60,000 nt of DNA from contig JBBDJR010000006.1 of the NCBI GenBank assembly GCA_040879785.1, positions 130,410-190,409 of the forward strand, given 5' to 3'. Source of the DNA: Candidatus Pacearchaeota archaeon (GTDB lineage Archaea; Nanobdellota; Nanobdellia; Pacearchaeales; GW2011-AR1). A program made the translations under genes and the position numbers. Shown piece by piece: positions 24,973-44,354 of this stretch. Every line of letters begins with the position of its first letter. The stretch's first letter is position 1. The notes below the pieces were generated by a model. It ran no database searches, was not told where the DNA came from, and was given only the letters and a program-made list of their open reading frames with translations.

Positions 24973-24992
24973 AGCGAGGAGTGGGGTTTGAA
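24973..24992 (-). pseudogene. tRNA-Cys-like 3' end fragment (T loop, T stem 3' strand and acceptor 3' strand)
   Basis: The minus strand reads TTCAAACCCCACTCCTCGCT, versus the genuine tRNA-Cys 3' end TTCGAATCCCACTCCTCGCT at 28763-28782. Confidence 0.7.
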
Positions 24993-25026
24993 TGAGAACC
25001 TCCTGCAGGTTCTTCACAACTCCAGC
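24990..25026 (-). repeat. 37-nt tRNA-trailer hairpin element, copy A
   Basis: The minus strand reads GCTGGAGTTGTGAAGAACCTGCAGGAGGTTCTCATTC, identical to 28795-28831 (plus strand). It contains the stem AGAACCT/AGGTTCT around GCAGG. Confidence 0.85.
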
Positions 25027-25041
25027 TTCCCGAATCCTTCA

Positions 25042-25182
25042 TGCGGGCGAAAGGATTCGAACCTTTGTAAGCACTAAGCTAACAGGTTTCTTCGAGGTCC
25101 GTTTGCGTTATTATTATGCTGATAATCTCTTGCAAATCTACTCGCCTAAGCCTGTCCCGTTTGACCACTCCGGCACGCCCGC
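25042..25182 (-). tRNA. tRNA-Leu (UAG) with ~57-nt intron at the canonical 37/38 position
   Basis: GCGGGCG/CGCCCGC acceptor, ACAGG/CCTGT anticodon stem, loop CTTAGG|intron|A, long variable arm (TAGCTTAGTGCTTAC), AAAGG-TTCGAAT-CCTTT T arm and discriminator A. Confidence 0.8.
25088..25144 (-). other. tRNA-Leu intron
   Basis: This sequence lies between anticodon-loop G37 and A38. The internal helix CGAG/CTCG flanks the junctions. The exact splice sites were not determined. Confidence 0.6.
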
Positions 25183-25247
25183 ATAGAAATAAAGAATTAT
25201 TTTAGTATAAAAAGATATTGATATGGGATAGGATTTAAGGATGGAAA

Positions 25248-25260
25248 GATATTTAAATTA
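25248..25260 (+). promoter_or_regulatory. TATA-box-like promoter of the small 2-TM gene
   Basis: GATATTTAAATTA lies ~20-30 nt upstream of the ATG at 25279. GGAAA-ATATTTAAAT is conserved with the paralog promoter at 38121-38137. Confidence 0.4.
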
Positions 25261-25278
25261 ATTTATATTGATAAGGAA

Positions 25279-25473
25279 ATGTCAAACAAATTAGCTGTTG
25301 TTGGTTCTGTTTTATATCTTTTGTTTGGTTTATACCTGATAAACGCTTCTTTTGTCTTTGTTCCAATGCCAAACTTTATTGAATCGATTGATAGTTGGAT
25401 TGTTTTAATAGCAGGAATATTGGTTATTCTTGGTGGAGTAAATTATTTCAGGGCTAACAAGAATCCTTATTGA
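25279..25473 (+). CDS. small 2-TM membrane protein (paralog of 37894..38100)
   Basis: 64 aa. It aligns with the 68-aa protein at 37894-38100 (LYLLFGLYLIN...W IVLIAGILVILGGVNYF versus LYILFAIYFLN...W IIFIGGILLVFGGFSFF). Confidence 0.6.
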   Translation: MSNKLAVVGSVLYLLFGLYLINASFVFVPMPNFIESIDSWIVLIAGILVILGGVNYFRANKNPY

Positions 25474-25488
25474 TTTTGGAGAATTAAA

Positions 25489-25689
25489 GTGCTAAAGAAC
25501 AAAAAAAGAAAAATAAGAGAATTGTGGGTTGAGAGCGGATGGACTAGTTTTGCGTTGTTTGTTATATTTTTGGCGATTTATATTAGCAGGTTTATTAGAG
25601 ATCTAGAAGCGACAGGATACTTATACATTTCAATAGGTCTTTTTATAGCTTCGGTAATCCAGTTAGGAATGAAGTATAAGAAAAAATAA
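25489..25689 (+). CDS. small 2-TM membrane protein
   Basis: 66-aa ORF with a GTG start and two hydrophobic helices. Confidence 0.4.
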   Translation: MLKNKKRKIRELWVESGWTSFALFVIFLAIYISRFIRDLEATGYLYISIGLFIASVIQLGMKYKKK

Positions 25690-25713
25690 GATTAATTACA
25701 TTATGTAAGTATA

Positions 25714-26640
25714 TTACTTCTTCGCTTTGACTTCGGCTTCTTTCTGTTTTATTTTTTCTTCGAGGTCGAGTTTTTCTATAAGCTCTTTGTATCTGTTTCT
25801 TATTGTAACTTCTGTTATCCCTGCAATGTCTGCGACTTCTCTTTGAGTTTTTTTCTCGTCGTTTATTAATGCGGCAACGTAAAGTGCGGCGGCGGCGATT
25901 CCTGCAGGGCCTCTTCCCGATGTTAGCTCAACACCCTCTGCTTTTTTTAGAACTTTGAGCGCGTCGTTTTGAGCTTTTGGAGATAGTTTTAGAACTGAAG
26001 AGAATCTTGAGATGTAGTCTTTTGGGGAGCTTTGCGTGACTTTTATTCCGAGTTTTCTTATGATGAATCTGTATGTTCTTCCGATTTCTTTTCTTTCAAC
26101 GTCGGATGCTGTTGCCATTTCGTCAAGAGTTCGCGGGATGTTGTAGCTTCTGCAGGCGGCGTAAAGACATGCGGCAATTACAGATTCCATGCTTCTTCCT
26201 CTTACGAGACCTCTTTGGAGAACGAAGTTGTAAATTCTTGATGCCTCGTCTCTGACGACGTTTGGAAGGTTTAGGTAGGAAGCGATAACCCTTAGTTCAG
26301 CCATTGCGAGTCTTAGATTTCTTTCAATAGAAGTTGAAACTCTCTCCTGCCATTTTTTAAGTCTTAAGAATTTTCTTGTTTGTTTTGGGTCTAATCTATA
26401 AATATCGGAGATTTCACCGACGTTAGTTGTAAGCCCTTTGTCGAATTTTTGCATGCTTGAAGGCGCTCCGCCACGACCTTTTTTCTCCCCTTTATCGAAT
26501 TTTCCTTGTAAATCTACACCAGAATCAACCATTTTTTCTTCTACAACAAGACCACAATCATTACAAATTATTTCTCCGAGGTGAGGATCATAAGTAAGAT
26601 TTATACTTTCACATTCAGGACATTTTTTTATAGAGGTCAT
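25714..26640 (-). CDS. tfb: transcription initiation factor IIB (TFB)
   Basis: Zn ribbon CPECES...CNDCG, B-reader/linker, and two cyclin-fold repeats (SRIYNFVLQRGLVRGRS, AAALYVAALINDEKKTQREVADIAGITEVTIRNRYKEL). Confidence 0.95.
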   Translation of the reverse strand: MTSIKKCPECESINLTYDPHLGEIICNDCGLVVEEKMVDSGVDLQGKFDKGEKKGRGGAPSSMQKFDKGLTTNVGEISDIYRLDPKQTRKFLRLKKWQERVSTSIERNLRLAMAELRVIASYLNLPNVVRDEASRIYNFVLQRGLVRGRSMESVIAACLYAACRSYNIPRTLDEMATASDVERKEIGRTYRFIIRKLGIKVTQSSPKDYISRFSSVLKLSPKAQNDALKVLKKAEGVELTSGRGPAGIAAAALYVAALINDEKKTQREVADIAGITEVTIRNRYKELIEKLDLEEKIKQKEAEVKAKK

Positions 26641-26702
26641 TTGAGTTGTTTTTTAGCCATTTTAAGACTAAAGAAATTTTGTTACTTCGAGGTTGGTAAA
26701 AA

Positions 26703-26755
26703 GGTTTATAAACCAACTTTGTACAGCGTTTATAAACTTTTCGTCATTTATAAAG
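26703..26755. promoter_or_regulatory. three TTTATAAA boxes upstream of tfb
   Basis: GGTTTATAAACC (26703-26714, a perfect 12-nt palindrome), GTTTATAAAC (26728-26737) and ATTTATAAAG (26746-26755), located 63-115 nt upstream of the tfb ATG. Confidence 0.4.
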
Positions 26756-26798
26756 CTTTCGGTTTTTATTCTCGGAGAGTATGGTTTCAGAACTAGGT

Positions 26799-27164
26799 TT
26801 ATTCGTTTTCAATAAGGATACCATTAACAACACTTTCCTGGCTTGGTCTGTTTGTGATTCTTACTTTTCCTTTATCTGTCTCAACGATTGTACCTTTTGT
26901 AAGTATGTTTTGTCTTGCAAGGAATCTATTTGACGGAGTTTCAATAACGTTTTTTATTTCAAGTTTTTGATTTTTGTCTTTTATTTTTACGTTAATAAAT
27001 TTTGATTTAAGCAAAGATGTTTTTATGTTTCCGCCCCGCACTCTGTATGTTTTTCTTTTGTCTTCTCCGAGTTTTGTTGTCCTTTTTTGTCCTTCTCTTT
27101 CGTAGAGCTTTTTACTTCTATGCTTTTTGTACTTTCCGCCCGTAGTCTTTATTCCTTTTCTCAT
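26799..27164 (-). CDS. rps8e: 30S ribosomal protein S8e
   Basis: MRKGIKTTGGKYKKHRSKKLYE..., GGNIKTSLL, and a C-terminal ITNRPSQESVVNGILIE. Confidence 0.9.
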   Translation of the reverse strand: MRKGIKTTGGKYKKHRSKKLYEREGQKRTTKLGEDKRKTYRVRGGNIKTSLLKSKFINVKIKDKNQKLEIKNVIETPSNRFLARQNILTKGTIVETDKGKVRITNRPSQESVVNGILIENE

Positions 27165-27318
27165 GTTAAAGATGAAAAGCTTTAATTTAAATAGGTTTCT
27201 GTTTGAAGATTTTTTGAAAATGAGGCAGATGTGTTCTTGTAAATGCAGAACCGAAGAATTTATAAATAAACCAATAGAATATTCTATATAAATATTCCAT
27301 AATTTGGAGTTTAATAAA

Positions 27319-27567
27319 ATGGTTAACGGAATTGAAAGACCTCTAGATCTTTTAAATAATTCGAAAGGAAAGGAAGTGCTTGTTCACTTGAAAGGCGATA
27401 AGCAGTTTGTAGGAACATTGTTAGCTTTTGACATTCATGTGAATCTTGTTCTTGATAATATAAAAGAAATGGAAGGTGGCGAAGTAAAAAGAAATCTTGG
27501 ACTTACATTTCTTAGAGGAGACACAATAATTTTCATTTCTCCTGCCTCTACTGCTTTGAAGAAGTAG
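27319..27567 (+). CDS. Sm-like archaeal protein (SmAP/LSm)
   Basis: Sm1 motif VLVHLKGDKQFVGTLLAFDIHVNLVLDN and Sm2 motif LRGDTIIFIS. The ATG at 27319 is preferred over the TTG at 27304. Confidence 0.85.
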   Translation: MVNGIERPLDLLNNSKGKEVLVHLKGDKQFVGTLLAFDIHVNLVLDNIKEMEGGEVKRNLGLTFLRGDTIIFISPASTALKK

Positions 27568-27613
27568 TTATAATTTTAGTTACTTTTATTAATTAGATTT
27601 TGCTTTATTATTT

Positions 27614-28516
27614 ATGGCAGAAAAAGTAAAAATACATTTTTTGGGAACAAGTGATTCTGTTCCGAGCGCTGGAAGAAACCATCCTTCAATCTGGCTGAGT
27701 TATGAGAGAGAGAATATTTTGATTGATTGTGGGGAAGGGACGCAGAGACAGATTCGGAAGGCGAGATTAAATCCGTGCAGGATAACAAGGATTTTGATTA
27801 CTCATTGGCACGCAGATCATATTTTAGGAATTCCAGGATTGTTGAAAACTCTGGGGATGAGCGGTTACAACAGAACTTTACATATTTATGGGCCACGAGG
27901 AACTAAGAGAAAATTGGAATCTTTGAGGGACTTGTTTGGAGTCAGAGAGGAATATCCCATTAAGGTAAAAGAGGTTTCAGGAAAATTCTTGGAGGAGGAT
28001 GATTTTTATATTGAATCTGAAGAGATGACTCACGGGACTCCTTGCAACGCGTATTCGTTTGTTTTAAAAGGCAAGACGAGAATCGACAAGAAAAAGATTG
28101 AGAAGTTTAAGATTCCGACGGGGCCTCATATGAAAAAACTGAAAGAAGGAAAAGATATAACTTACAAAGGGAAAAAATATTCCGCAAAGAATTTGACTTA
28201 CACAGAGGAAGGGAAGAGGGTTTCAATTGTTTTGGATACGGCTTTAAATGAGAGGATTGCGCCTTTTGTTAAAGAGTCTGATGTTTTTGTGTCAGAGTCT
28301 ACGTTTGATTCCGGGCATGAGGATAAAGCAAGAGAGTATAAACATCTCACCTCAGAGCAGGCAGCGCGAATTGCGAAGAAAGCGAAAGTTAAGAAGCTTT
28401 ATCTGATTCATGTCAGCCAGAGATTTTCAAAGAATTTTAAGGCTGTGCTGCAGGAAGCTAAAAAGGTTTTCAAGGAAACGAGCCTGCCTAAGGATTTGGA
28501 TTCTGTTGAGGTTTGA
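27614..28516 (+). CDS. rnz: ribonuclease Z (tRNA 3' endonuclease, metallo-beta-lactamase fold)
   Basis: FLGTSDSVPS, IDCGEGTQRQ, ITHWHADHILGIPGLL, and a C-terminal LIHVSQRF. Confidence 0.85.
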   Translation: MAEKVKIHFLGTSDSVPSAGRNHPSIWLSYERENILIDCGEGTQRQIRKARLNPCRITRILITHWHADHILGIPGLLKTLGMSGYNRTLHIYGPRGTKRKLESLRDLFGVREEYPIKVKEVSGKFLEEDDFYIESEEMTHGTPCNAYSFVLKGKTRIDKKKIEKFKIPTGPHMKKLKEGKDITYKGKKYSAKNLTYTEEGKRVSIVLDTALNERIAPFVKESDVFVSESTFDSGHEDKAREYKHLTSEQAARIAKKAKVKKLYLIHVSQRFSKNFKAVLQEAKKVFKETSLPKDLDSVEV

Positions 28517-28581
28517 TTAAATGATTTTAAGATAAACAAAACATTTTAAATACAATTTCTTCTTAGATTTTTAGCTTAGAT

Positions 28582-28634
28582 GCCCTTGTTTGGACAAGTC
28601 TGGACGAATAAAGGTGGGCGAGCGAAGCAAGTGA
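28582..28634 (+). repeat. GC-rich leader element upstream of tRNA-Arg that begins with a degenerate copy of the tRNA 5' end
   Basis: GCCCTTGTTTGGACAAGTCTGGACGAATAAAGGTGGGCGAGCGAAGCAAGTGA directly precedes GCCCCTGTAGCTC. It shares the TCTGGACGA and GCGA..GCA.GTGA motifs with the Val and Thr leaders. Confidence 0.55.
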
Positions 28635-28708
28635 GCCCCTGTAGCTCAGCTGGATAGAGCAACTGACTTCTAATCAGTAGGTCGCAGGTTCAAATCCTGT
28701 CGGGGGCA
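28635..28708 (+). tRNA. tRNA-Arg (UCU)
   Basis: GCCCCTG/CGGGGGC acceptor, GCTC/GAGC D stem, ACTGA-CTTCTAA-TCAGT anticodon arm, GCAGG-TTCAAAT-CCTGT T arm. Confidence 0.9.
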
Positions 28709-28711
28709 TTT

Positions 28712-28782
28712 GCGGGGATGGCGAAGTGGTTACGCGCTCGGCTGCAACCCGAGTAACGTGGGTTCGAATCCCACTCCTCGCT
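28712..28782 (+). tRNA. tRNA-Cys (GCA)
   Basis: GCGGGGA/TCCTCGC acceptor, CTCGG-CTGCAAC-CCGAG anticodon arm, GTGGG-TTCGAAT-CCCAC T arm, and discriminator U as expected for Cys. It lies 3 nt after tRNA-Arg. Confidence 0.9.
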
Positions 28783-28794
28783 TGGATTTGGGAC

Positions 28795-28831
28795 GCTGGA
28801 GTTGTGAAGAACCTGCAGGAGGTTCTCATTC
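28795..28831 (+). repeat. 37-nt tRNA-trailer hairpin element, copy B
   Basis: GCTGGAGTTGTGAAGAACCTGCAGGAGGTTCTCATTC is identical to copy A in inverted orientation. Confidence 0.85.
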
Positions 28832-28848
28832 GGGTCCTTTCGCCCGCA
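28829..28848 (+). pseudogene. tRNA-Leu-like 3' end fragment
   Basis: Compare TTCGGGTCCTTTCGCCCGCA (then TGAA) with the genuine tRNA-Leu 3' end TTCGAATCCTTTCGCCCGCA (then TGAA). Confidence 0.7.
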
Positions 28849-28852
28849 TGAA

Positions 28853-31800
28853 TTAACAAACCTCAGGGAACATCTCTTTAAGCTTATCTAAATTTTCAGT
28901 ACTACCCACATTTTCAACATATCTCGGATCGCCAATCAATCCAAGACTCCCATCATCTTTCTCGTAGGTACACTGAGAATTCCATCCGTTATAAGACCTT
29001 AAAGCTCTTTGCCATCCACGATAAGCCAAATTAATGAAATCACTTTCCCTAACAACAGAACCATGCCTCTCTTGACGATAACAACTATAAACTCTTTCAA
29101 AAGAATCATATTCATCGGCCAATAAATTCAACCCAACCTCCATATTTTTCTCTGCATCTGAAAGTTGGTCTATACATTCCTCGTGATTAGATGAAAGACC
29201 ATAGTCTCCACAATGCCCAACATCCTGTCCTGTGTCCTGTCTTGTAAATGCGGTATTAATCTGCATAACACCAAAACTCGCGCCTTCATCCCCAAGGATA
29301 ACCTCACTGGAATTTTCGTTACAATAAAGAGGGTCTTCTCCCTGATGTATCTGATTACAATGCTGAATCTCACTCTCATGATAAGCAACCGCCAAGGCCA
29401 AACACTCAAAAGAAGCTATTCTTCCTCCATTATCTTCACTCACTACACCATCACTCATAAAAGGAGGACTCCCTCTTTCCTGTTTTATATCCGAAGCAAT
29501 ATCTATGATTTTATATCCTATATCTTCTTGACATTCTTCCTTTGTTGTACAACCAAAACCTATCTCAGGTGGAGAAACCCTTGTATTATCGGGAGCGGCG
29601 GTCTCGAATCCCGGGGAAGAAAAATCAGAGTCATCTATATCAAACAGAGACCTTCCGCTACCAACATCTTCCTCATTTAAATTTAAATCAATTGAGAAAA
29701 TCACTGCGGCTCCTTCAAGAAAACCTCTGTCTCTTAATGACATAATAATATTCCTTGTCCCATCCTCAGCAATGGAGATTTCCGTTCGCCCAAATCCGGA
29801 CCCTACCAACCTGCTTTCAGGAATCTCTCCCGAGACAGGTGCCATAAGACTGATATCTTCAATAGCATACATCCACTCTCCTTCGTCCTCACTATACTCA
29901 AAATACAAATCATAATCGCCCTCAAAATCTCCCCCATCATATCTTCTCGCAACGCTAAACCTTCCTCTATGTGAAAACCCAACTTTTTCAGTGGATAATT
30001 TTGAGTTACGCAAAGTAATTCCCAAAAGAGGTATTCTTGACTTCTCATCATTTTGTTCAACCCTGTCTATTAAAAACTCAAGACCCTCGAGATAAGACTT
30101 TCCTTTTAGTCCAGACTCTGTAAACTCTCTGTTCTCAGACAAAAGATTTTCCGAAGGAAGAGTTATTCCTTCTGGAATCTCCACCCTTGTATTATCGGGA
30201 GCGGCGGTTTCAAAACCGGGATCGTCAAATTGTCCAGGCTCAATATCTTCAATTCGTGTAGGTACATCATCATCTTTAGGAGGAGTCCTATTAAGAGTAT
30301 AATCAATATGTCTAACATCAAACCACTCACCGCCTTCTCCAGGACTTTCTCCGTCCAAAGACCAGTACCAATTCCCATCTATGAAAGTATAATAGATATT
30401 CTGACCAAAAAAGAATCTCCCGTCGCCAAAGGCAAAAACAGGATAATCCACACCAAGAGATCTTAACTCCTCTTCTGTTGCAGGATTGGTCACTTCCAAA
30501 ATTTCATCAATACCATCTTCCCCATCATCATCTCCATCTGGATCAACACAAAGACTGTCCTCGCAAACTTTTCCATCAGGACAATCCTCATCTTCAGTAC
30601 AATCACCTTCATTCTCATCAAGAAGTTTCTGATAGGCAGCCACAGCAAGCTTCCTGTAGGCATCCCCTCTAACCAGAGTCAAAAATCCCTTCTCATAACT
30701 CAAGAAAACCTTCTCAATATTCTCATTTACTTTTTCAATCAAACTGACAGGGTTCCCTTTACTTTCCAAATCTTCAATCTCACCGACAACATCTCTAAAC
30801 TCATCATCACTTAAAGCCCCGGTCTCATTTCTCAAAACCTCAAGATAATCAACTGCGGAATCATTTAATGCCTTCTCTCTCAATCCTTCATGTTTCACCG
30901 TATTTTCAACACTTCTTCTATCAAGCCAGCAACCAATCTGAGGAGAATCACAATGTCCGACCCTGACCCATCTTGAATCTTCGGTTCCGGCCGCAGCGTC
31001 CGTCGCCGAGCCGGGATTGTCCGTCGCACAGATTCTTGTAATTCCTCTGTTATGAAGAGATGGATCAACGCCCTCACGAATACTAGGATTAATTATACTC
31101 TCTATATTAGTCGTCCCTGAAACACACTCTCTCTCAGAACTTATATCGGTCCTTGAAACCTGGTCTGAAATAAATCTATCTGAAAGGTAGTTCGGTGCAA
31201 AATCTGTCGTAACCTGGCCAAACCCACACTCTTCCTGACCATTCACTACAATACACAATTCATTAAATCCTGAAGGAGCCGTAAAATCACAAGGCTGATT
31301 TGGATTGGAACCACAAGTTGCAGAATCACCGGCAGGAATAAATCCTGTAGCAACCACTCTCCTCGAAGGAGTGTCCTGGTAAAATGATTCTCCTGTACTT
31401 CTAAGGTAAACCTGATAGTAAGCAGAAACATCCTCTCCCGCATAAATATGATAAAATGTCTTATAGTGGGAAGTCGGAGGAGTCGTAGCCGAGGTAAAAG
31501 GTATCTCATCAAACCTTCCATAGAATTGTGCAGGCACTCTTGGTTTTGTTATTGAATCAATAAGACTTCCGGTATCAGGTCCTGCAATCGAAACCCAGTT
31601 TTTACAAACCTCTGTTCCAACACCTTCCATTGACCTTACCCTAAATGCATTAGCAGAATTCACAGCATACTCTTGCGTAAAGAAATCCGCGGACTCTCCT
31701 GCTTTCTGCCACGCATCCCTTACATCCATATACTCTCCTCCTCCACGAGTAGTTTGCCCGCCAAGAACTTTTCCAAGAACCTCCGGAATCACCGCGTTCG

Positions 31801-34800
31801 CAACCGGAAGCGCCTGCCTCCAGAAGAAATCACACATATAAACAGAATGAAGCTGATCACAAATTCCTATCTGTTGTCCGGTCTCAAGGCTGTGCTCAAG
31901 ACACTGCTGATAATTATCCAATACACTCAAATATCCCTCAAGACCCGCATGAACTCCCGAAAGGCAAATCGGAACATAAACATCTCCGCCTGCCCACGCT
32001 GCGTTAGGATAACATAAAGCAATACTTCCAATCACTCCCGACTGTACAACATCTCTAACATGATAGTTTCCTCCAAGATTACACCTTGAACTCGGGCAAA
32101 CAACAGGGTCACAAATATTAAACATGATACTACACTCTTTCGCAGACATAAAGTCCTGACACTCTACATCCGGAACTCCCACAGCCGGCTCTCCAACATC
32201 AATTGTCTCTCCAAACAAACTGATTGAACTAAGTCCCGCACTATGCTTTCTTGAGGCTTGGGCAATCGCCTGGACAGCCCTGTCTGTAAGCAGAAATGCA
32301 TCATTCTCATCCAGTCCCGGGAAATTTGTGTAAGGCTGGCTCAAACCAGGATTCATCAAAACACAATCATCATCTCCAACCCCTGAGAAAAACTCTTCTC
32401 TTCCGTTTTCTCCGACGTTACACAAATAAAAACTCGAAACTCTTCCCGAATCTTCAAACGCCCTCACCTGTCCTCCTATAGGAAGACTCGATTTTATTGC
32501 TGCATACCAACCATCACCCAAACCCGGAGGAGCAGGGAAAGGAACAATCGCAGGCAATCCCGCATACTGCCCGGTTTCATAATACCTCAACTCACAATTT
32601 GAACACTCATTATCATAAGTTTCTTTTTCATAATAATTGAAAGAAAGTCCCAACGGATTTGGATGCTTAGGGTCATCTTTCGTGCCGTGCCTCTCTAAAG
32701 AGTTTCCCTCTCCGACGACATAAGTCTCCTGAATAACATCATTCTCATTCAAAACCAAAAGATATATTTGCCCGTCTGCCTCATTCTCAAAAAGCTGGAC
32801 GCTTTCATCATCATTAATTTGCGCTCCTGAAAATTTATCTTCAACCTGGCCAAAAGTCGTTCGCGTGGTAAACGGAATCTTAGTCAGCTTTTCCGTCGAG
32901 CCAATGATAGGATTAGAAAATCCCGTATCCTCAGAAATACTTCTCCTCTTAGAGTCTCTATTAGAATTAACATAAATATCTCCAAGAGCGGATTCGATAT
33001 CACCTCTCGCAACATCACTAACAACCGAATTATCAGAATTCAAAAGCCGTGCATTCAACTGCAAGTCTCTCGCCTGAGTCACATAAGTCGTCTCAGGAGT
33101 CATGTTCCCAATTATACTCGAAACAGGTACGTCCCGTCCTTCAATCTTTATCGTTTCAATACCTTCAAGATTTCCACTCAATTCATTTCTATAATCATCA
33201 TCAACAAGTTTCTCCATAAACGCCCCGGTGTCAACAACATCCTCTCCAAGGAAATGGCTCGTGGTAATCCCTTCCTGAATTTTTTTCATCTCTTCATTAT
33301 GTTTCTCCAACGCTTCCGCCACTTCATTCACAGCACTTTCTATCCTATCATTCTTATCAAGCAAGCAAGAATCCATTGACTCTCCCGTCCCGGCTATCTC
33401 ACTTTCACAAATCTCATAATAACCTCCCGGACCCCTCATAACTTTCTGCCTGGCAATTCCTTCTCCCTGCAAATTCGAGAAAAAGTTTTTCACAGTTAAA
33501 GCAGCACCAACACCAAGACATGCCTTATTTCCTAATTCAACTGCAGTTCCAAGCTTCTCATTTATATTCCTCCACCTTTCCAATTTTTCATCCAAAGAAT
33601 CAATTCTTTCTCTTGTTTTCTCCGGAGAAAGCTGTATCGCTCTTTTTTCAATCCCAATCCTAAACGGAAACTCTGCCTCTGTTTCCTGGAACCTCACCTT
33701 CGGCTGAACAGAAACTTTTGCAACTTCGTTTAAATTTGCCTGCTGTAACGAAAAGGTATATCCTCCTCTTGAATCAGGTAACCCTTCCCTTAATGTTATT
33801 CTTGTTACCTGGCCAACAAAAGCTCTCTCAACGCCTTCAACAAATCCCTCTCTGAGATTAGTCCTAATTCTAACAGAAATCTCTCCAGAAGAATCTCTGC
33901 TCATATCAACTAACTGGATAAATGCCCCACTTGTATGGTTCAAAACACGTACAGAATCTTTTCTCAAATGGATACCCTCCGTGCTTCCATCAGGCATCCT
34001 TACAGAAACCACCGCCCCGAAATCATCAAACGTCGGCTCTCTAACCCTGTCTAAAGAGATACTATAAGTTCTTCCCTTAACCAAAACACTTCCCATAGAA
34101 GACTCCGGACTCGCGAGCCGATGCTCCTCGACACAATCCTTAGGAGGATTTTCATTCATCGAATCAGGATAACTATCTTCAAACTCCTCACACAACTCAA
34201 CAACAGACCTTTTCTGACCTGTTCCTTCCTGAAGCTCTATCATCCCTCTCAACGCCCTCTCACCAAAAGTTGGCTCATTATCTAATTCCGGAGGATATCT
34301 ATCACCAGCAAAACCATCCAAAACATCATTATAATCCTCGACCGCATTTTCATAATTCTCTCTATCTTCATCGCCTAATTCAGACAGGTCCGCATCGACC
34401 GCGTCCGCAAAACCCTCAATAAAAGCTTCTTTTCCCTCCTCACTTCCACCACTAAAAATTAATCTAGATTCTTGAAAAGAGATACTTTCAAAAAATATTC
34501 CTGAAACAATATATTTGTATATTGCTTTTCCTTGCCCAATTAAAGTCCTTCCTAACGTAGCAAAGTTATCTATCCTAACACCTTCTTCACCCTTTGTCGC
34601 ATAAACTGTCGAAAGAAATGCGGAGATATCTCCATTAGGAGCCTCATTAAAGAAATCAGCAAAATCTTCCAATTCAGAATTACTTAATCTTTCCCTCGTT
34701 CCCGGAACTGCTGCAAGTCCCGCTACTAAATCTTCATTTGATCTTGTGTTACCTTTTGTCGTAACATAAGCAAGATACACTGTCTTTTCTCCTTCTGCCG

Positions 34801-35959
34801 CCATTAAAGGCCTCCCATCCTCTCCTAAAAGAGCATCACCAACACTATAATATCTATCAATTCCTTCAACACTTATATTTACTCTGGGACTGACTTTCAA
34901 ATGCAAATTCCCGCTTCCTTCATCCGCCCTGCAACTAATATCGGCACTTTCAACAATTCCCTGCTTTTCAACTCTCCTAACCCTGCAATCATTATCCAAA
35001 AACCTTTCACCTTCCCTAAACTCAAAAACATCTCCATTAATTTCTAATCTCGCAGTCGTATCCGGATTCTCGATATCATCAAGTCTTAAATTCATACTTC
35101 CCGCACAAAAATTAAATCCGGGCATAAAAATATCTCTTGAAGATTCACCAACAACAAGATTCTCCGTCGCAACTCTCCTCTTATTCGTCCCCGTCCTCGA
35201 GCCTGTTTCTCTATCTGAATAAACCGAAATCGACGCCCTATCGTCATTAACACTCTCAGCTCTCAAAAATCCCCGTCCCTGCCAAAAACTAGACTGAACA
35301 AAATCCCTGTTCCACTCAGTATCACTCATCACCGGAAGATAAAATGAAGACTGCCCGACGCCAAACGCGTTATGAACATCATACCTTATTCTTGCAGTGA
35401 GATTTCCCTCGACAAAATCAGGCATCGCACTCTCATTCCTTTCCTGTCTTAAAACAATCACCGCGTAACCAACATTATTCAAAACCGGCTGAGTTAGTTC
35501 TGCTCCGGGCCTTCCCAACGCTGCCCTCGCCGGTTGGAACCCAACGCCAGAAACTCCTTCCGGCCTTCCTTCAGGAGAAAAAGTAACTCTGTCAATAGTA
35601 TCAACATCAATCAAAGGATTCAACTTAGTCGCAACAATCGGGCAAAAAACAGGCACATTTTGACTCTCAAGTAAATCACTTCTTACAATAGATGGGGCAC
35701 ATCCCGTCGGAGAAACCTGCAAAAGAAAATCCTGCCCTGACTCACACATTCCCCTATCAAAACCGGTAAAGCCGGGGTCGACCGCTCTCCGAACCGTAGG
35801 GTCAAACTGACCATTTTCAACATACTCTTTTGAATATGACGAAGAAGAAAACTGCGCCGAAACCAAAAAAGCCGTCGACAAAATCACGGCCAAAACAAGC
35901 AAAGCTAGAACAAATCTTTTCATTCCTTTCTCTCCTAACTTATCTCCAATAATTTTCAT
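28853..35959 (-). CDS. giant secreted/surface protein (2368 aa) with C-terminal SLT-type lytic transglycosylase domain
   Basis: Uninterrupted 7.1-kb ORF with the signal peptide MKRFVLALLVLAVILSTAFLVSAQ, Cys-rich segments and a duplicated PGFETAAPDNTRV motif (30192-30230 and 29576-29614). The C-terminal 185 aa carry SLT motifs. Confidence 0.85.
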   Translation of the reverse strand: MKIIGDKLGEKGMKRFVLALLVLAVILSTAFLVSAQFSSSSYSKEYVENGQFDPTVRRAVDPGFTGFDRGMCESGQDFLLQVSPTGCAPSIVRSDLLESQNVPVFCPIVATKLNPLIDVDTIDRVTFSPEGRPEGVSGVGFQPARAALGRPGAELTQPVLNNVGYAVIVLRQERNESAMPDFVEGNLTARIRYDVHNAFGVGQSSFYLPVMSDTEWNRDFVQSSFWQGRGFLRAESVNDDRASISVYSDRETGSRTGTNKRRVATENLVVGESSRDIFMPGFNFCAGSMNLRLDDIENPDTTARLEINGDVFEFREGERFLDNDCRVRRVEKQGIVESADISCRADEGSGNLHLKVSPRVNISVEGIDRYYSVGDALLGEDGRPLMAAEGEKTVYLAYVTTKGNTRSNEDLVAGLAAVPGTRERLSNSELEDFADFFNEAPNGDISAFLSTVYATKGEEGVRIDNFATLGRTLIGQGKAIYKYIVSGIFFESISFQESRLIFSGGSEEGKEAFIEGFADAVDADLSELGDEDRENYENAVEDYNDVLDGFAGDRYPPELDNEPTFGERALRGMIELQEGTGQKRSVVELCEEFEDSYPDSMNENPPKDCVEEHRLASPESSMGSVLVKGRTYSISLDRVREPTFDDFGAVVSVRMPDGSTEGIHLRKDSVRVLNHTSGAFIQLVDMSRDSSGEISVRIRTNLREGFVEGVERAFVGQVTRITLREGLPDSRGGYTFSLQQANLNEVAKVSVQPKVRFQETEAEFPFRIGIEKRAIQLSPEKTRERIDSLDEKLERWRNINEKLGTAVELGNKACLGVGAALTVKNFFSNLQGEGIARQKVMRGPGGYYEICESEIAGTGESMDSCLLDKNDRIESAVNEVAEALEKHNEEMKKIQEGITTSHFLGEDVVDTGAFMEKLVDDDYRNELSGNLEGIETIKIEGRDVPVSSIIGNMTPETTYVTQARDLQLNARLLNSDNSVVSDVARGDIESALGDIYVNSNRDSKRRSISEDTGFSNPIIGSTEKLTKIPFTTRTTFGQVEDKFSGAQINDDESVQLFENEADGQIYLLVLNENDVIQETYVVGEGNSLERHGTKDDPKHPNPLGLSFNYYEKETYDNECSNCELRYYETGQYAGLPAIVPFPAPPGLGDGWYAAIKSSLPIGGQVRAFEDSGRVSSFYLCNVGENGREEFFSGVGDDDCVLMNPGLSQPYTNFPGLDENDAFLLTDRAVQAIAQASRKHSAGLSSISLFGETIDVGEPAVGVPDVECQDFMSAKECSIMFNICDPVVCPSSRCNLGGNYHVRDVVQSGVIGSIALCYPNAAWAGGDVYVPICLSGVHAGLEGYLSVLDNYQQCLEHSLETGQQIGICDQLHSVYMCDFFWRQALPVANAVIPEVLGKVLGGQTTRGGGEYMDVRDAWQKAGESADFFTQEYAVNSANAFRVRSMEGVGTEVCKNWVSIAGPDTGSLIDSITKPRVPAQFYGRFDEIPFTSATTPPTSHYKTFYHIYAGEDVSAYYQVYLRSTGESFYQDTPSRRVVATGFIPAGDSATCGSNPNQPCDFTAPSGFNELCIVVNGQEECGFGQVTTDFAPNYLSDRFISDQVSRTDISSERECVSGTTNIESIINPSIREGVDPSLHNRGITRICATDNPGSATDAAAGTEDSRWVRVGHCDSPQIGCWLDRRSVENTVKHEGLREKALNDSAVDYLEVLRNETGALSDDEFRDVVGEIEDLESKGNPVSLIEKVNENIEKVFLSYEKGFLTLVRGDAYRKLAVAAYQKLLDENEGDCTEDEDCPDGKVCEDSLCVDPDGDDDGEDGIDEILEVTNPATEEELRSLGVDYPVFAFGDGRFFFGQNIYYTFIDGNWYWSLDGESPGEGGEWFDVRHIDYTLNRTPPKDDDVPTRIEDIEPGQFDDPGFETAAPDNTRVEIPEGITLPSENLLSENREFTESGLKGKSYLEGLEFLIDRVEQNDEKSRIPLLGITLRNSKLSTEKVGFSHRGRFSVARRYDGGDFEGDYDLYFEYSEDEGEWMYAIEDISLMAPVSGEIPESRLVGSGFGRTEISIAEDGTRNIIMSLRDRGFLEGAAVIFSIDLNLNEEDVGSGRSLFDIDDSDFSSPGFETAAPDNTRVSPPEIGFGCTTKEECQEDIGYKIIDIASDIKQERGSPPFMSDGVVSEDNGGRIASFECLALAVAYHESEIQHCNQIHQGEDPLYCNENSSEVILGDEGASFGVMQINTAFTRQDTGQDVGHCGDYGLSSNHEECIDQLSDAEKNMEVGLNLLADEYDSFERVYSCYRQERHGSVVRESDFINLAYRGWQRALRSYNGWNSQCTYEKDDGSLGLIGDPRYVENVGSTENLDKLKEMFPEVC
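28856..29410 (-). other. SLT (goose-lysozyme-like lytic transglycosylase) domain of the giant protein
   Basis: LALAVAYHESEIQHCN (catalytic Glu-Ser), ASFGVMQINTAF (GLMQ-type motif) and QRALRSYNGWN (AYNxG-type motif), in the canonical order and spacing. Confidence 0.7.
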
Positions 35960-37849
35960 TTATCCAAAATTTATCTCCAGTCCGCTCTCTTCAAACAGCA
36001 AATAATTAAAGTGTAGCTGGTCGGTCGTTTCAGGAATTGAAAAACTCTCCGCATTTATTTCTAACATTCCTGAACTCATTAAATCATCCTCCAGTATAAA
36101 ATGATTCTGCTGTCCGCCTCCCGCAAGAACCTGCGAAACAACCTGCTCCGGAATCTCAATCTCAAAACATCTCTCCTCAGTAAGTCCTAAAAATCCCAAA
36201 GCGCCCGAACGCGGAACATCGACACACTGCTCCGTAACAGTTTCAGGCATCGTGATTTCAGAGTCCTCATAAATATGAACCTGAACTTCATACTGACCTT
36301 CAGCCAAAGAAACAGACCTCTGCTCCGGATAAATAACCGTCCTCGTAAAATCATCTCCAAGGAAATAAATTATTGCCTCGCCGTTGTAAGCCTGTCCGTC
36401 AAGCCGAAGCTGAATCTGCTTATCATAAATCCTGTCCATAATAATTGTTGTGCTATCAGATTCAACTGTCGAAAACAACCTGCTCGTCTCCTTAAATCCT
36501 TCAGCCCTCGCCGTAACAAAACCATTCACACACTGAGGGAAATCGTCAACAAGAACTCCCGATTCCGGAGACTCTCCGATATTACATCTGTTTCCAAAAC
36601 ACTCATAAGAAATGTCCGCCTCGACAGGAGCTCCTTGTTTATCCCTAACCCTAATCTCCTGCTCTGTGTTTTTATACTGGCAAAGCTCGGGGTCAACCTG
36701 CTGAGAAGCCTCTCCCTCAAGAGACTCTCGAGGATTATTATTTTCTATAACGACCGCCATCGGAAACTGGAAAACCTCCCCGTCCAAACCCGAATCAGAG
36801 TAAACCTGAACCAAAACAGGATATTTCATAGAATAAACAAAATGATACGGAACATAACAAAATCCCAACGCCCCGAGCCCGGGCTGATTCCCAACAGGAT
36901 TCGAAATCATAAACGCTCCGTCGGAAGGCGTAACCTCGATGCTGTGCGGCCAGTCCCTCGACTGAAGAAACCGAACCTCTTCATTAACAGGAAGCCCGAC
37001 CTCAAAATAATCATCAACACTCTCTCCCGAACTCAACGCTAAAGTGTTCGCCTCAACACCCTCTTGTAACTCATCAAAAACTTCCTCCGCATTCCAAACC
37101 TGAGGAGAACACGAAATCTCAACCCCGTCGACAGGCGCGTAAAGTCTCAAAGTATCGACAGCATACCCCTCCAAAAACAAACTCTCCTGCTCCTCTTCAT
37201 AAACAGCCAGAGCAGAATCATACAAAGAGCCAAGCCCCGAATTAACGCTAACATCATGATGCCTCACAAGAACACTCTCATCGCCTCTCGCAAAATTAAG
37301 ATTCATCTCCAATTCAACATCGACCCTGTCGTCCATAATCTCAACTCTCGACGACGGCTCCGCCCAGGAAATCTCAAACCCCTGGTCATAATACGATTCA
37401 AAATTACATCCCTCGACCCTGTCGTCTATAAAATTCTGCAACTGCGTCTCCATCGCCTCCTTCGAAGGAACCTGCTCTCTCTGAATGTTATTCCCCGAAA
37501 CGTAATACCAATACGGAATCGGAGTCCCCATAAAATTAAATTGCGACGAGAAAGGCATATGTCCCGAGCCCGGCTCAAATTCCGGAAGCCCAATATATCC
37601 CCCGCGGCTCAACAAAATACTAATCCCCGTCGAAGCGCTGTCCTCGATACAAGTCAAAAAAGAAGTATACGCCGGCTGAAACTCCTCAGGAACCGCCTCG
37701 GTCTGAACGTCCGTCCTAAGAATAAAATAAAGAGAAACCCCCACAACCAAAAGTATCGCAATAATTATGAAAATAGTCACCTGCCCTTTTTTTCCCAAAT
37801 CGAACATCTTTGAAGCAACGCCCTTTTTTTTCACCGAAGATAAATCCAT
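35960..37849 (-). CDS. membrane-anchored extracellular protein (629 aa), partner of the giant protein
   Basis: N-terminal TM helix VTIFIIIAILLVVGVSLYFIL and an acidic ectodomain with paired Cys. Its stop codon abuts the giant gene start codon (35960/35959). No family recognised. Confidence 0.75.
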   Translation of the reverse strand: MDLSSVKKKGVASKMFDLGKKGQVTIFIIIAILLVVGVSLYFILRTDVQTEAVPEEFQPAYTSFLTCIEDSASTGISILLSRGGYIGLPEFEPGSGHMPFSSQFNFMGTPIPYWYYVSGNNIQREQVPSKEAMETQLQNFIDDRVEGCNFESYYDQGFEISWAEPSSRVEIMDDRVDVELEMNLNFARGDESVLVRHHDVSVNSGLGSLYDSALAVYEEEQESLFLEGYAVDTLRLYAPVDGVEISCSPQVWNAEEVFDELQEGVEANTLALSSGESVDDYFEVGLPVNEEVRFLQSRDWPHSIEVTPSDGAFMISNPVGNQPGLGALGFCYVPYHFVYSMKYPVLVQVYSDSGLDGEVFQFPMAVVIENNNPRESLEGEASQQVDPELCQYKNTEQEIRVRDKQGAPVEADISYECFGNRCNIGESPESGVLVDDFPQCVNGFVTARAEGFKETSRLFSTVESDSTTIIMDRIYDKQIQLRLDGQAYNGEAIIYFLGDDFTRTVIYPEQRSVSLAEGQYEVQVHIYEDSEITMPETVTEQCVDVPRSGALGFLGLTEERCFEIEIPEQVVSQVLAGGGQQNHFILEDDLMSSGMLEINAESFSIPETTDQLHFNYLLFEESGLEINFG

Positions 37850-37893
37850 AAAAAAAATATGAAAATCATGTATATAAATTTATTGATGAAACA

Positions 37894-38100
37894 CTAATAT
37901 ACAACCCTGCCACGCCTGAAAAAACTGAATCCTCCGAAAACCAAAAGAATCCCTCCAATGAAAATTATCCACGGCTCAAACGAAGAAAACGCATCCCCGA
38001 AATTAATAAAATTAAAAGGATAGTTCAAAAAATAAATCGCGAAAAGGATATACAAAAACATGAATAACCCCCTCACCTTGCTTCTCCCGCCGTATCTCAT
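37894..38100 (-). CDS. small 2-TM membrane protein (paralog of 25279..25473)
   Basis: 68 aa, homologous to the 64-aa protein at 25279. A conserved promoter-like GGAAATATTTAAATAT lies upstream. Confidence 0.6.
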   Translation of the reverse strand: MRYGGRSKVRGLFMFLYILFAIYFLNYPFNFINFGDAFSSFEPWIIFIGGILLVFGGFSFFRRGRVVY

Positions 38101-38120
38101 AAATAACCGACATAAACATT

Positions 38121-38137
38121 ATATTTAAATATTTCCA
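38121..38137 (-). promoter_or_regulatory. TATA-box-like promoter of the 37894..38100 gene
   Basis: The minus strand reads GGAAATATTTAAATAT, 21-37 nt upstream of the ATG at 38100. It is similar to 25244-25260. Confidence 0.4.
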
Positions 38138-38153
38138 CCTCGAAGCAATTTTG

Positions 38154-38195
38154 GGTCCTGTGGTCTATGTCGGCCACGCCTGGACGATATCATAA
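38154..38195 (+). repeat. GC-rich leader element upstream of tRNA-Val starting with a copy of the tRNA 5' end
   Basis: GGTCCTGTGGTCTATGTCGGCCACGCCTGGACGATATCATAA. Its first 15 nt match the tRNA-Val start GGTCCCGTGGTCTAG at 14/15. It can fold as nested stems GTCC/GGAC and GTGG/CCAC. Confidence 0.6.
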
Positions 38196-43975: not shown

Positions 43976-44042
43976 ATTTAATGATAAGTCACTTCCTAAA
44001 CAAGAAATCTTTTAAACTAATTCTGCCCTTAAGTTTTAGTCT

Positions 44043-44167
44043 GCCTGTGAACTCTGTGCCGGCCGCGCTTGGATGGTGCAGTAGCAAACAGGTGAGCAAA
44101 ACGAGCCTGTGTAACTCTAAGCCGACCTCGCCAGGGCGGTTTTGTAGCGAACAGGCGAACGCAGTGA
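44043..44167 (+). repeat. two tandem GC-rich leader units upstream of tRNA-Thr, each starting with a copy of the tRNA 5' end
   Basis: Unit 1 (44043-44104) is GCCTGTGAACTC...ACAGGTGAGCAAAACGA. Unit 2 (44105-44167) is GCCTGTGTAACTC...ACAGGCGAACGCAGTGA. The genuine tRNA GCCTGTGTAGCTC follows. Each unit has a GCCTGT/ACAGG(C/T) closing stem. Confidence 0.65.
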
Positions 44168-44239
44168 GCCTGTGTAGCTCAGTGGTAGAGCGGCTGCCTT
44201 GTAAGCAGTAGGTCGGGGGTTCAACTCCCTCCACAGGCT
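44168..44239 (+). tRNA. tRNA-Thr (UGU)
   Basis: GCCTGTG/CACAGGC acceptor, GCTC/GAGC D stem, GCTGC-CTTGTAA-GCAGT anticodon arm, GGGGG-TTCAACT-CCCTC T arm. Confidence 0.9.
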
Positions 44240-44254
44240 TTGGGGAGTTGGGAA

Positions 44255-44291
44255 GCTGGAGGTGTGAGGAACCCGCAGGAGGTTCTCATTC
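44255..44291 (+). repeat. 37-nt tRNA-trailer hairpin element, copy C (3 substitutions)
   Basis: GCTGGAGGTGTGAGGAACCCGCAGGAGGTTCTCATTC matches 34/37 to copies A and B. One change (A to G) keeps the stem as a G.U pair. Confidence 0.8.
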
Positions 44292-44354
44292 AACTCCCTT
44301 GGCTGGACCACGCTTGGGCAGTCAAGAGTGAATCTCATAAACTCTCCACAGGCT
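44289..44354 (+). pseudogene. tRNA-Thr-like 3' end duplicate interrupted by a 44-nt insert
   Basis: Compare TTCAACTCCCT [TGGCTGGACCACGCTTGGGCAGTCAAGAGTGAATCTCATAAACT] CTCCACAGGCT with the genuine TTCAACTCCCTCCACAGGCT. Confidence 0.65.

Follow-up and report, generated by a model that had tools for sequence, protein, structure and literature searches.

Tandem leader units that repeat the start of a Pacearchaeota tRNA-Thr gene are probably insertions of a small, target-duplicating hairpin element

How does a tRNA gene come to be preceded by repeated copies of its own beginning? The gene for tRNA-Thr(UGU) in a Candidatus Pacearchaeota archaeon poses this question: directly upstream of it stand two tandem units of about 62 nucleotides (nt), each opening with the 5' end of the tRNA, just as a sequence-only reading of this DNA had described. 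The gene lies in a stretch of 60,000 nt (the window; positions 130,410 to 190,409 of contig JBBDJR010000006.1) from an archaeal metagenome-assembled genome (MAG) of 0.55 Mb with 36% G+C that is 73% complete (G000), and the units differ from the window in base composition (58–59% against 36% G+C). In its conserved proteins, this MAG comes closest to DPANN genomes of the Pacearchaeota/Woesearchaeota type. The leader units are probably insertions of a small hairpin element that is non-coding and strand-specific and leaves its target duplicated; the element is neither derived from tRNA nor dedicated to tRNA genes.

Both units follow one plan, consisting of nt 1–12 or 1–13 of the tRNA, a 30-nt hairpin ending in GTAG, 3 nt, the segment ACAGG(T/C), and a purine-rich linker of 11 nt that abuts the next copy or the tRNA itself. 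The duplicated 5' ends read GCCTGTG-AACTC or GCCTGTGTAACTC, the start of tRNA-Thr reading GCCTGTGTAGCTC, and it is the upstream copies that are degenerate, having A10 where the tRNA has G10. Behind the gene, the trailer starts with a complement of the T-loop and T-stem (GGGGAGTTG), continues with a second repeat family (core GCTGGAGGTGTGAGGAACCCGCAGGAGGTTCTCA) and carries a copy of the tRNA 3' end that is split by a third copy of the hairpin element; a 44-nt insert in this trailer had been likened to the interior of unit 1, and the same hairpin apex is indeed found in both. Unitigs from the source metagenome span every junction of the two-unit arrangement without a mismatch and at a depth equal to that of the flanks, so the arrangement is not an assembly artefact.

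The same locus also exists without units. The genes for NDK and GINS, which flank tRNA-Thr(UGU) in the window, flank in the same-genus genome G014 a tRNA-Thr(UGU) gene that is 100% identical; there the promoter leads directly into the tRNA, and the downstream flank follows directly after it, with neither units nor trailer. Genomes G015, G002 and G023 are likewise free of units at this locus. Both states occur side by side in the source metagenome, a G014-like empty form at a depth of 54–58 and the filled form at 32–39, the joints of the empty form being 44028>44168 and 44241>44372, and neither G014 nor this co-occurring strain has any part of the trailer. A second site is the protein gene whose product ends in ...RGRRP*, where in G056 the final 21 bp of the locus stand on both sides of the element, about ten sister genomes having the target only once. 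Empty alleles together with target duplication, a trait of MITEs (miniature inverted-repeat transposable elements), occur at the tRNA-Thr site and at that of the RGRRP gene.

The hairpin is one of a dispersed family, each member about 22–50 nt long and marked by the apex CGRCCACGCNTGGRCG. This consensus was searched for with at most one mismatch, and with the reversed pattern as a control, in 42 genomes of the same genus, 255 of the same family (122 genera) and 45 from eight other families of the order. About 95 matches were found in 18 of the 42 same-genus genomes, 24 having no copy, and the reversed pattern gave no match in any of the 42; the apex was also present in 34 of the 255 same-family genomes (26 of the 122 genera) and in none of the 45 from the eight other families. 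A genome-wide scan had been proposed as a way of finding further copies, and it did find them; the accompanying test of whether every occurrence is linked to a tRNA gene came out negative, about three quarters of the copies sampled lying elsewhere. When linkage is defined as a distance of no more than 120 nt, 24 of 99 distinct copies are linked to a tRNA, 20 of these 24 on its sense strand, and as tRNA genes with their 120-nt flanks make up an estimated 2% or so of these genomes, copies are enriched roughly tenfold there. Copies of G000 away from tRNA genes follow the stop codons of gyrB and of the gene ending in ...RGRRP*, or lie in the 5' untranslated region of spt5, beside the 3' end of the 23S rRNA gene and at a further locus on contig C4; Rfam matched tRNA and large subunit (LSU) rRNA at the module-bearing loci, and nothing else. 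Many copies in relatives stand in frame inside open reading frames (ORFs), on the opposite strand, the apex being read as RPSV(V/A)EL. Apparently intact ORFs with such in-frame copies were seen at L048, L058, L098, L101, L102, L107, L117, L122, L149 and L153, a peptide such as E-x-RPSV(V/A)-E-L being added to charged, low-complexity stretches, much as with the Rickettsia palindromic elements (RPEs).

The flanks of these copies carry the footprint of insertion. Fresh copies lie between perfect direct repeats of 18–22 bp, for example 20 bp at L056 and L053, 21 bp at L064 and L077, and 22 bp at L071, the insert between the perfect repeats being as short as 22–24 nt. Measured against a background of mismatched flanks, 21 of the 99 copies exceed the 99th percentile and 48 of 99 reach a flank-repeat score of at least 9 (8% of the background), and the lengths of the target repeats cluster at 13–22 bp, a variability that is atypical for one transposase. 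The left repeat ends 4–5 nt before the apex, at the motif C-Y-Y-T, the four bases of which occupy positions -8 to -5 in 84, 97, 94 and 77 of the 99 copies, respectively. Genes for tRNA supply this motif twice, in the D-stem strand GCTC (nt 10–13) and in the T-stem strand CCCT. The leader copies stop at nt 13 because the D-stem strand provides CYYT, and since the T-stem strand provides it as well, a third copy is found at 44300, within the T-arm that is duplicated in the trailer.

The element consists of two inverted arms around a 4-nt centre, an arrangement that corresponds to the terminal inverted repeats (TIRs) of MITEs. Across 48 copies, which are related by descent so that statistics of pairing, covariation and G·T use overstate their independence, the share of paired stem cells is 94.4% (79% in shuffles) and 62 cells show double changes where 16.8 are expected; G·T outnumbers A·C by 58 to 8 (p = 2e-10). 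A purine–purine mismatch is conserved within the hairpin, its two R positions being G..A in 45 copies, A..G in 43, A..A in seven and G..G in two. Covariation, the excess of G·T and the R..R pattern together mean that it is the strand with CACGCTTGG that has to fold, whether in RNA or in single-stranded DNA. The folding strand is the sense strand at tRNA genes and the antisense strand at the protein genes hit, which argues against a purely transcript-level role and agrees with an asymmetric element that takes its orientation from the CYYT target. An imperfect, strand-specific hairpin behind a conserved 5' tetranucleotide (the bases of CYYT being present in 77–97% of the 99 copies) is also what characterises repetitive extragenic palindromes (REPs), the partners of REP-associated tyrosine transposases (RAYTs), and palindromic elements derived from IS200/IS605.

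The tRNA-Thr(UGU) gene is one of several in G000 that carry such units. ARAGORN and Rfam detect 26–27 tRNA genes in this genome, and when the first 12 nt of each tRNA were sought in the 200 nt upstream, and the last 12 nt downstream, with at most two mismatches, the 5' end recurred at 8 of 27 tRNAs and the 3' end at 7 of 27, against 3.2% and 2.4%, respectively, in mismatched pairs of tRNA and flank. The similarity therefore goes beyond what short GC-rich strings give by chance, for which these controls lie near 3%. The single unit described earlier before tRNA-Val(GAC) is present, with its hairpin apex CGGCCACGCCTGGACG at 38171-38186, and is identical to the tRNA at 13 of the first 15 positions instead of the 14 claimed; the tRNA-Val gene of G056 is preceded by a unit of the same position and layout. 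The unit reported before tRNA-Arg(UCU) shares the module and the linker GCGAAGCAAGTGA, its copy of the tRNA start being weak (GCCCTTGT against GCCCCTGT). Unit 2 of tRNA-Thr(UGU) is identical at 61 of 63 positions to the unit that precedes tRNA-Thr(GGU) at a distance of 138 kb, and at 54 of 63 to unit 2 of tRNA-Ile(UAU), with only 44 of 63 shared with its own neighbour, unit 1 (shuffles: mean 34, maximum 41). As unit 2 is thus closer to distant tRNA leaders than to unit 1, local tandem duplication is not the origin of the pair, which by this sequence comparison would be two separate acquisitions stacked at one hot spot. The sequence-only reading had offered scars of repeated integration or a tRNA-derived miniature mobile element among its explanations. 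Integration of a mobile element fits best among these, given the empty sites, the patchy multi-copy spread, the target duplications and the closest relative of unit 2 at another tRNA; derivation from tRNA fails, for the tRNA-like 5' end is target sequence in duplicate and the core hairpin is unrelated to tRNA. Table 1 collects the features of these loci.

Table 1. Features of the tRNA-Thr(UGU) locus and of the units before two further tRNA genes, in window coordinates.
Feature	Position	Strand	Remarks
TATA-like box TTTTAAAC	44010..44017	+	read from sequence; ~30 nt upstream of first leader copy
Leader unit 1	44043..44104	+	62 nt
Unit 1, duplicated tRNA 5' end	44043-44054	+	
Unit 1, hairpin ending GTAG	44055-44084	+	apex CGGCCGCGCTTGGATG at 44060-44075
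Unit 1, copy complement ACAGGT	44088-44093	+	
Unit 1, linker GAGCAAAACGA	44094-44104	+	
Leader unit 2	44105..44167	+	63 nt
Unit 2, duplicated tRNA 5' end	44105-44117	+	
Unit 2, hairpin ending GTAG	44118-44147	+	degenerate apex CGACCTCGCCAGGGCG at 44123-44138
Unit 2, ACAGGC	44151-44156	+	
Unit 2, linker GAACGCAGTGA	44157-44167	+	
tRNA-Thr(UGU), intact	44168..44239	+	no encoded CCA; Rfam 74.8 bits, ARAGORN
Trailer of tRNA-Thr(UGU)	44240..44354	+	
Trailer, copy of tRNA 3' end in two pieces	44289-44299 + 44342-44354	+	
Third hairpin-element copy, splitting the trailer's tRNA 3' copy	44300-44341	+	apex GGACCACGCTTGGGCA at 44305-44320
Single short unit before tRNA-Val(GAC)	38154..38195	+	copy of tRNA nt 1-14 GGTCCTGTGGTCTA, hairpin, 6 more nt
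Degenerate unit before tRNA-Arg(UCU)	28582..28634	+	GCCCTTG..., GTCTGGACGA, GGGC, linker GCGAAGCAAGTGA

The course of such an insertion can be sketched from these features. The minimal form of the element measures about 22–26 nt and comprises an arm of 4–6 nt, the apex CG-R-CCACGCNTGG-R-CG and a matching arm, and the form seen in tRNA leaders, of about 49 nt, adds GTAG, a short complement of the duplicated target and a tail resembling GAACGAAGTGA. The element lands just 3' of CYYT and has on its flanks a direct duplication of 13–22 bp of its target, presumably left by integration at a staggered cut. At a tRNA gene, the (G)CTC of the D-stem at nt 11–13 would serve as the landing motif and the duplication would re-create nt 1–13, giving an intact tRNA downstream with the old promoter and an orphaned 5' copy upstream of it. 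Because duplication back to +1 regenerates the whole tRNA, such insertions would, as we read them, survive. The old promoter would probably drive a long leader of copy, hairpin and tail, and RNase P could cut it at the true +1; an archaeal RNase P RNA gene is present in G000 (147 bits), so that leaders should be removable. Loss of RNase P with removal of the leaders by the splicing endonuclease, as in Nanoarchaeum, was rejected because the RNase P RNA is present and no bulge-helix-bulge (BHB) can be drawn: inspection, with no dedicated BHB scanner run, yielded no arrangement of 3-nt bulge, 4-bp helix and 3-nt bulge at the unit boundaries.

Several candidates for the enzyme or vehicle that moves the element were tried and rejected. 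HUH transposases of the Y1 type are indifferent to its presence, Y1_Tnp being found in 15 of the 42 same-genus genomes (7 of the 18 with the element and 8 of the 24 without). G000 itself has a partial Y1 transposase gene of IS200/IS605 type at the end of contig C4 (G000:C4:125500-126386), with different subterminal hairpins of its own and no relation to the leader hairpins. Cas1, as part of a casposase, occurs in one of the 42 genomes (G043), which has no elements, and the reverse transcriptase domain RVT_1 in 17 of the 42 (9 of 18 with the element, 8 of 24 without). The RVT_1 ORFs of 350–480 amino acids common in the genus (for example L239 and L240, from the same 17 genomes) may, we assume, be diversity-generating retroelements. 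No ORF recurs beside 30 element loci, and neither in these loci nor in the 42 MAGs, which are incomplete, was an autonomous transposase with the same ends found that could partner the element as in MITEs. A viral carrier was discarded as well, since the 82 single matches in IMG/VR are by estimate about what chance gives; of those inspected, most lie in GC-rich phage contigs, lack the arms and are mostly of the G..G variant.

Known systems resemble the element in part. Among the small, non-autonomous prokaryotic palindromes (a review is PMC3184786), it is like MITEs, REPs with their bacterial interspersed mosaic elements (BIMEs), SMAG repeats and RPEs in being short, GC-rich, hairpin-forming, multi-copy, non-coding and patchy among relatives; it is intergenic like these palindromic repeats, and like RPEs it also stands in frame in genes and in RNA genes. 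It is unlike MITEs in size, the minimal element of about 22–26 bp being far smaller, and in that its duplications of 13–22 bp are nearly as long as the insert. REPs share with it an imperfect palindrome that has a conserved tetranucleotide immediately on its 5' side, as well as a structural constraint on one strand; unlike in REPs, the tetranucleotide is CYYT, not GTAG, and no cognate transposase or RAYT was found in these genomes. REPs and derivatives of IS200/IS605 make no target duplication, and the direct repeats at the present copies contradict such a duplication-free mechanism. In Escherichia coli, the tyrT locus has downstream repeats of 178 bp, each with the last 19 nt of tRNA-Tyr; the resemblance is one of layout only (tandem units repeating one tRNA terminus), there being a single locus and no dispersed hairpin family there. 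The nearest mechanistic precedent that could be documented is the casposase, which can insert short TIR duplexes into the 3' end of a tRNA gene or next to it, the gene staying intact (Béguin et al. 2016, PMC5137440); the end of the gene is overlapped by its duplication of 15 bp (at times 16 or 22), and the target contains the T-arm palindrome (PMC5137440). The present loci share with those products the insertion beside a tRNA gene, the long duplication overlapping the gene end and the intact gene. They differ from casposons in duplications that vary between 13 and 22 bp where those have a fixed target site duplication of 14–15 bp, in targets that include tRNA 5' ends, protein-gene ends and ORF interiors, in an insert that is a single small hairpin instead of a TIR-bounded transposon, and in Cas1 being confined to one genome, which is free of elements. 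A partial 5' copy of tRNA-Thr upstream of the intact gene, with heterogeneity between close genomes, has a counterpart in Caldiarchaeum, where the tRNA-Thr fragment adjoins a 1.8-kb recombinase element (Sugahara et al. 2012, PMC3293823) and partial tRNA copies were interpreted as insertion of mobile DNA (PMC3293823); unlike that element, the insert here has 49 nt, is non-coding, forms a tandem stack and is a member of a family found outside tRNA genes as well. Full-text searches of the literature turned up no account of elements like these for Pacearchaeota or Woesearchaeota. These loci may, though this is on balance doubtful, represent an undescribed class of mobile, strand-specific hairpin elements of about 25–50 nt with the CYYT target and duplications of 13–22 bp; their mover would be an enzyme that belongs to none of the known transposase families, perhaps a nuclease or ligase with housekeeping duties, or they would move through an RNA intermediate released from pre-tRNA leaders, and some copies may have been co-opted as structured tRNA leaders.

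Selection on RNA offers another account, in which the units, as self-folding hairpins that mimic an acceptor stem, are functional parts of the pre-tRNA that aid its folding or processing, act as substrates or decoys of RNase P or tRNase Z, or give rise to small RNAs; it appears unlikely. Transcription is implied by the promoter: the spacing of the TATA-like box to the first leader copy equals its spacing to the tRNA +1 at G000 tRNAs without units, the same box precedes the tRNA +1 by about 30 nt in the orthologous empty locus of G014, and from this spacing transcription would start at the first leader copy and the units would very probably be transcribed as a leader. The prevalence of the sense strand among tRNA-linked copies and the tolerance of G·U with avoidance of A·C on the folding strand also favour a role in RNA. 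Each unit can fold, GCCUGU pairing with ACAGG(U/C) to close the inner hairpin, and minimum free energy (MFE) folds join the first leader copy to the last trailer copy, with tRNA-Thr enclosed between them. The stability of the unit folds is nonetheless unremarkable (z-scores -1.0 to -2.0), and the notion of a mock acceptor stem, in which ACAGG(C/T) folds back onto the unit's own GCCTGT, holds for these two units and becomes weak across a set of 13. Other units have segments like ACAGG(C/T) too, in many cases 11 nt ahead of the copy that follows, and a stem of at least 5 bp between copy and complement is possible in 7 of the 13, against 28% for units paired with unrelated tRNA ends. The complementary segment was rejected as a guide for the true tRNA 5' end on the strength of this modest excess and because it pairs with the upstream copy; in the units of tRNA-Glu and tRNA-Ser(GGA), it matches that copy and not the true tRNA. 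It would instead form the base of a self-contained hairpin and may prevent competition between the decoy 5' strand and the genuine one. The functional account is further weakened by the identical tRNA-Thr of G014, which has neither units nor trailer, by the absence of the element from more than half of the same-genus genomes, and by the same hairpin at protein-gene ends and in ORFs, where it is antisense and the mRNA carries the complement that pairs less well.

Equally hard to sustain is the proposal that no mobile element is involved, replication slippage or template switching at hairpins having duplicated gene ends and gene conversion having spread copies among tRNA genes. The absence of a transposase, the variable repeat lengths and arrays of target-plus-hairpin units (L054, L066) are in its favour, as is the occurrence of unit 2 and the tRNA-Thr(GGU) unit at paralogous genes with identical 5' ends. 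Recombination at the trailer core has moreover inverted 3.8 kb between tRNA-Leu and tRNA-Cys: the trailer of tRNA-Cys (28712-28782) ends with the tRNA-Leu 3' end, that of tRNA-Leu(UAA) (25041-25183, minus strand) has the tRNA-Cys 3' end, and the swapped ends flank identical copies of the trailer core (window 24973-28848), which implies that about 3.8 kb were turned round when two inverted copies of the repeat recombined. Slippage and conversion leave unexplained how the hairpin first arrived, and they do not account for the same 16-nt apex with CYYT on its left at dozens of non-homologous sites in 26 genera, nor for sites at which perfect repeats of 20–22 bp hold a single hairpin and sister genomes have clean empty alleles. 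Very improbable is a third explanation, that the partial tRNA copies are attL/attR-type scars of integrative plasmids or viruses (of the SSV or pNOB8 type) with interiors deleted later. Partial tRNA copies around inserted DNA are indeed the classic signature of archaeal integration, as at the Caldiarchaeum tRNA-Thr fragment (PMC3293823), yet the inserts here have 22–50 nt and a conserved hairpin core that is the same at different tRNAs and at non-tRNA sites, the duplicated segment differs from site to site without a fixed att core, no ORF recurs beside the 30 loci and the IMG/VR matches look like chance. No full-length integrative element with the hairpin beside an att site turned up, integrase families not having been searched.

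Insertion of a target-duplicating hairpin remains the reading that these comparisons favour, and several observations weigh against it. About half of the copies show no clear repeat. The duplication in tRNA leaders starts at +1 or -1 of the tRNA in most of the units examined (L077, with a start at -6, is an exception), which would not be expected of a random staggered cut. The ends of IS200/IS605 elements in these genomes lack the hairpin, and no transposase, Cas1 or RVT_1 tracks the element among the 42 same-genus MAGs, whose incompleteness leaves absence unproven. We know of no transposon family that combines an insert of about 25 bp with target duplications varying from 13 to 22 bp. Gene conversion between paralogous tRNA genes, in place of transposition, could account for how nearly identical unit 2 is to the tRNA-Thr(GGU) unit. 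Finally, the leader module of tRNA-Lys (GGCTCT, a hairpin, then AGTGACAAATTTCAAAGAAATTT) has been kept in at least four species (G000, G021, G003 and G006) with compensatory changes in the stem, a point that also speaks for a function in the RNA; it is found at both Lys isoacceptors, with a variant form in G005, and its retention hints at a use.

Other features of these tRNA genes were noted alongside. The tRNA-Thr(UGU) gene of another species, G005 (L011), has two different leader units, one of them copying 20 nt of the tRNA, and three trailer units, each composed of some 20 nt, a hairpin whose sequence differs, and a ACTCACAGGCT copy; as the hairpins differ, the layout recurs with unrelated modules. 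Another hairpin module, GGGGCACCAAGGTTCCCCTTA..CTAACCCCTCC, is present both in the tRNA-Thr(UGU) leader of G011 (L002) and in the 37/38 intron of the G000 tRNA-Ser(UGA) gene (C1:40137-40282), the two being identical at 39 of 45 positions (alignment score 59, shuffled maximum 23), so that leader modules and tRNA introns share a pool of sequences. Long introns of 41–76 nt occur at the canonical position in 12 of the 27 tRNAs called by ARAGORN in G000, several with the common motif CTTT.GAAAAGTTC; many isoacceptors are missing from this genome, through its 73% completeness or because disrupted genes escape detection. The trailer core GAACCCGCAGGAGGT (window 44268-44282) resembles the 3' end of 16S rRNA (GAACCTGCAGATGGA, then TCACCTCCT; G000:C4:71580-71594). 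Derivation from 16S rRNA was nevertheless rejected, a match of 13 in 15 being expected by chance about once per genome on a rough estimate. A block of about 9 kb (window 28783-38195), with 41–45% G+C against 29–36% around it and a strongly negative GC skew, lies between the tRNA-Cys trailer and the tRNA-Val leader, both of which carry elements.

For this locus, the new points are the 16-nt apex with its phyletic pattern, the CYYT motif that explains the boundary at nt 13, the strand-specific G·T and R..R signal, the negative outcome of the tests for Y1, Cas1, reverse transcriptase and viruses, and the co-occurring empty allele. Partial tRNA copies of this kind confuse the prediction of tRNA genes and att sites, and the repeats drive rearrangements such as the 3.8-kb inversion in the window. 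The units probably also create long, structured pre-tRNA leaders in a lineage in which many tRNAs look leaderless. Genomes of about half a megabase, in which every nucleotide is usually thought to be under pressure, have nonetheless been colonised in one DPANN family by a hairpin element of 25–50 nt, which has settled in tRNA leaders and trailers, at the ends of genes and inside essential ORFs; if the mechanism suggested by its footprint is true, this would be the smallest insertion element known to us.

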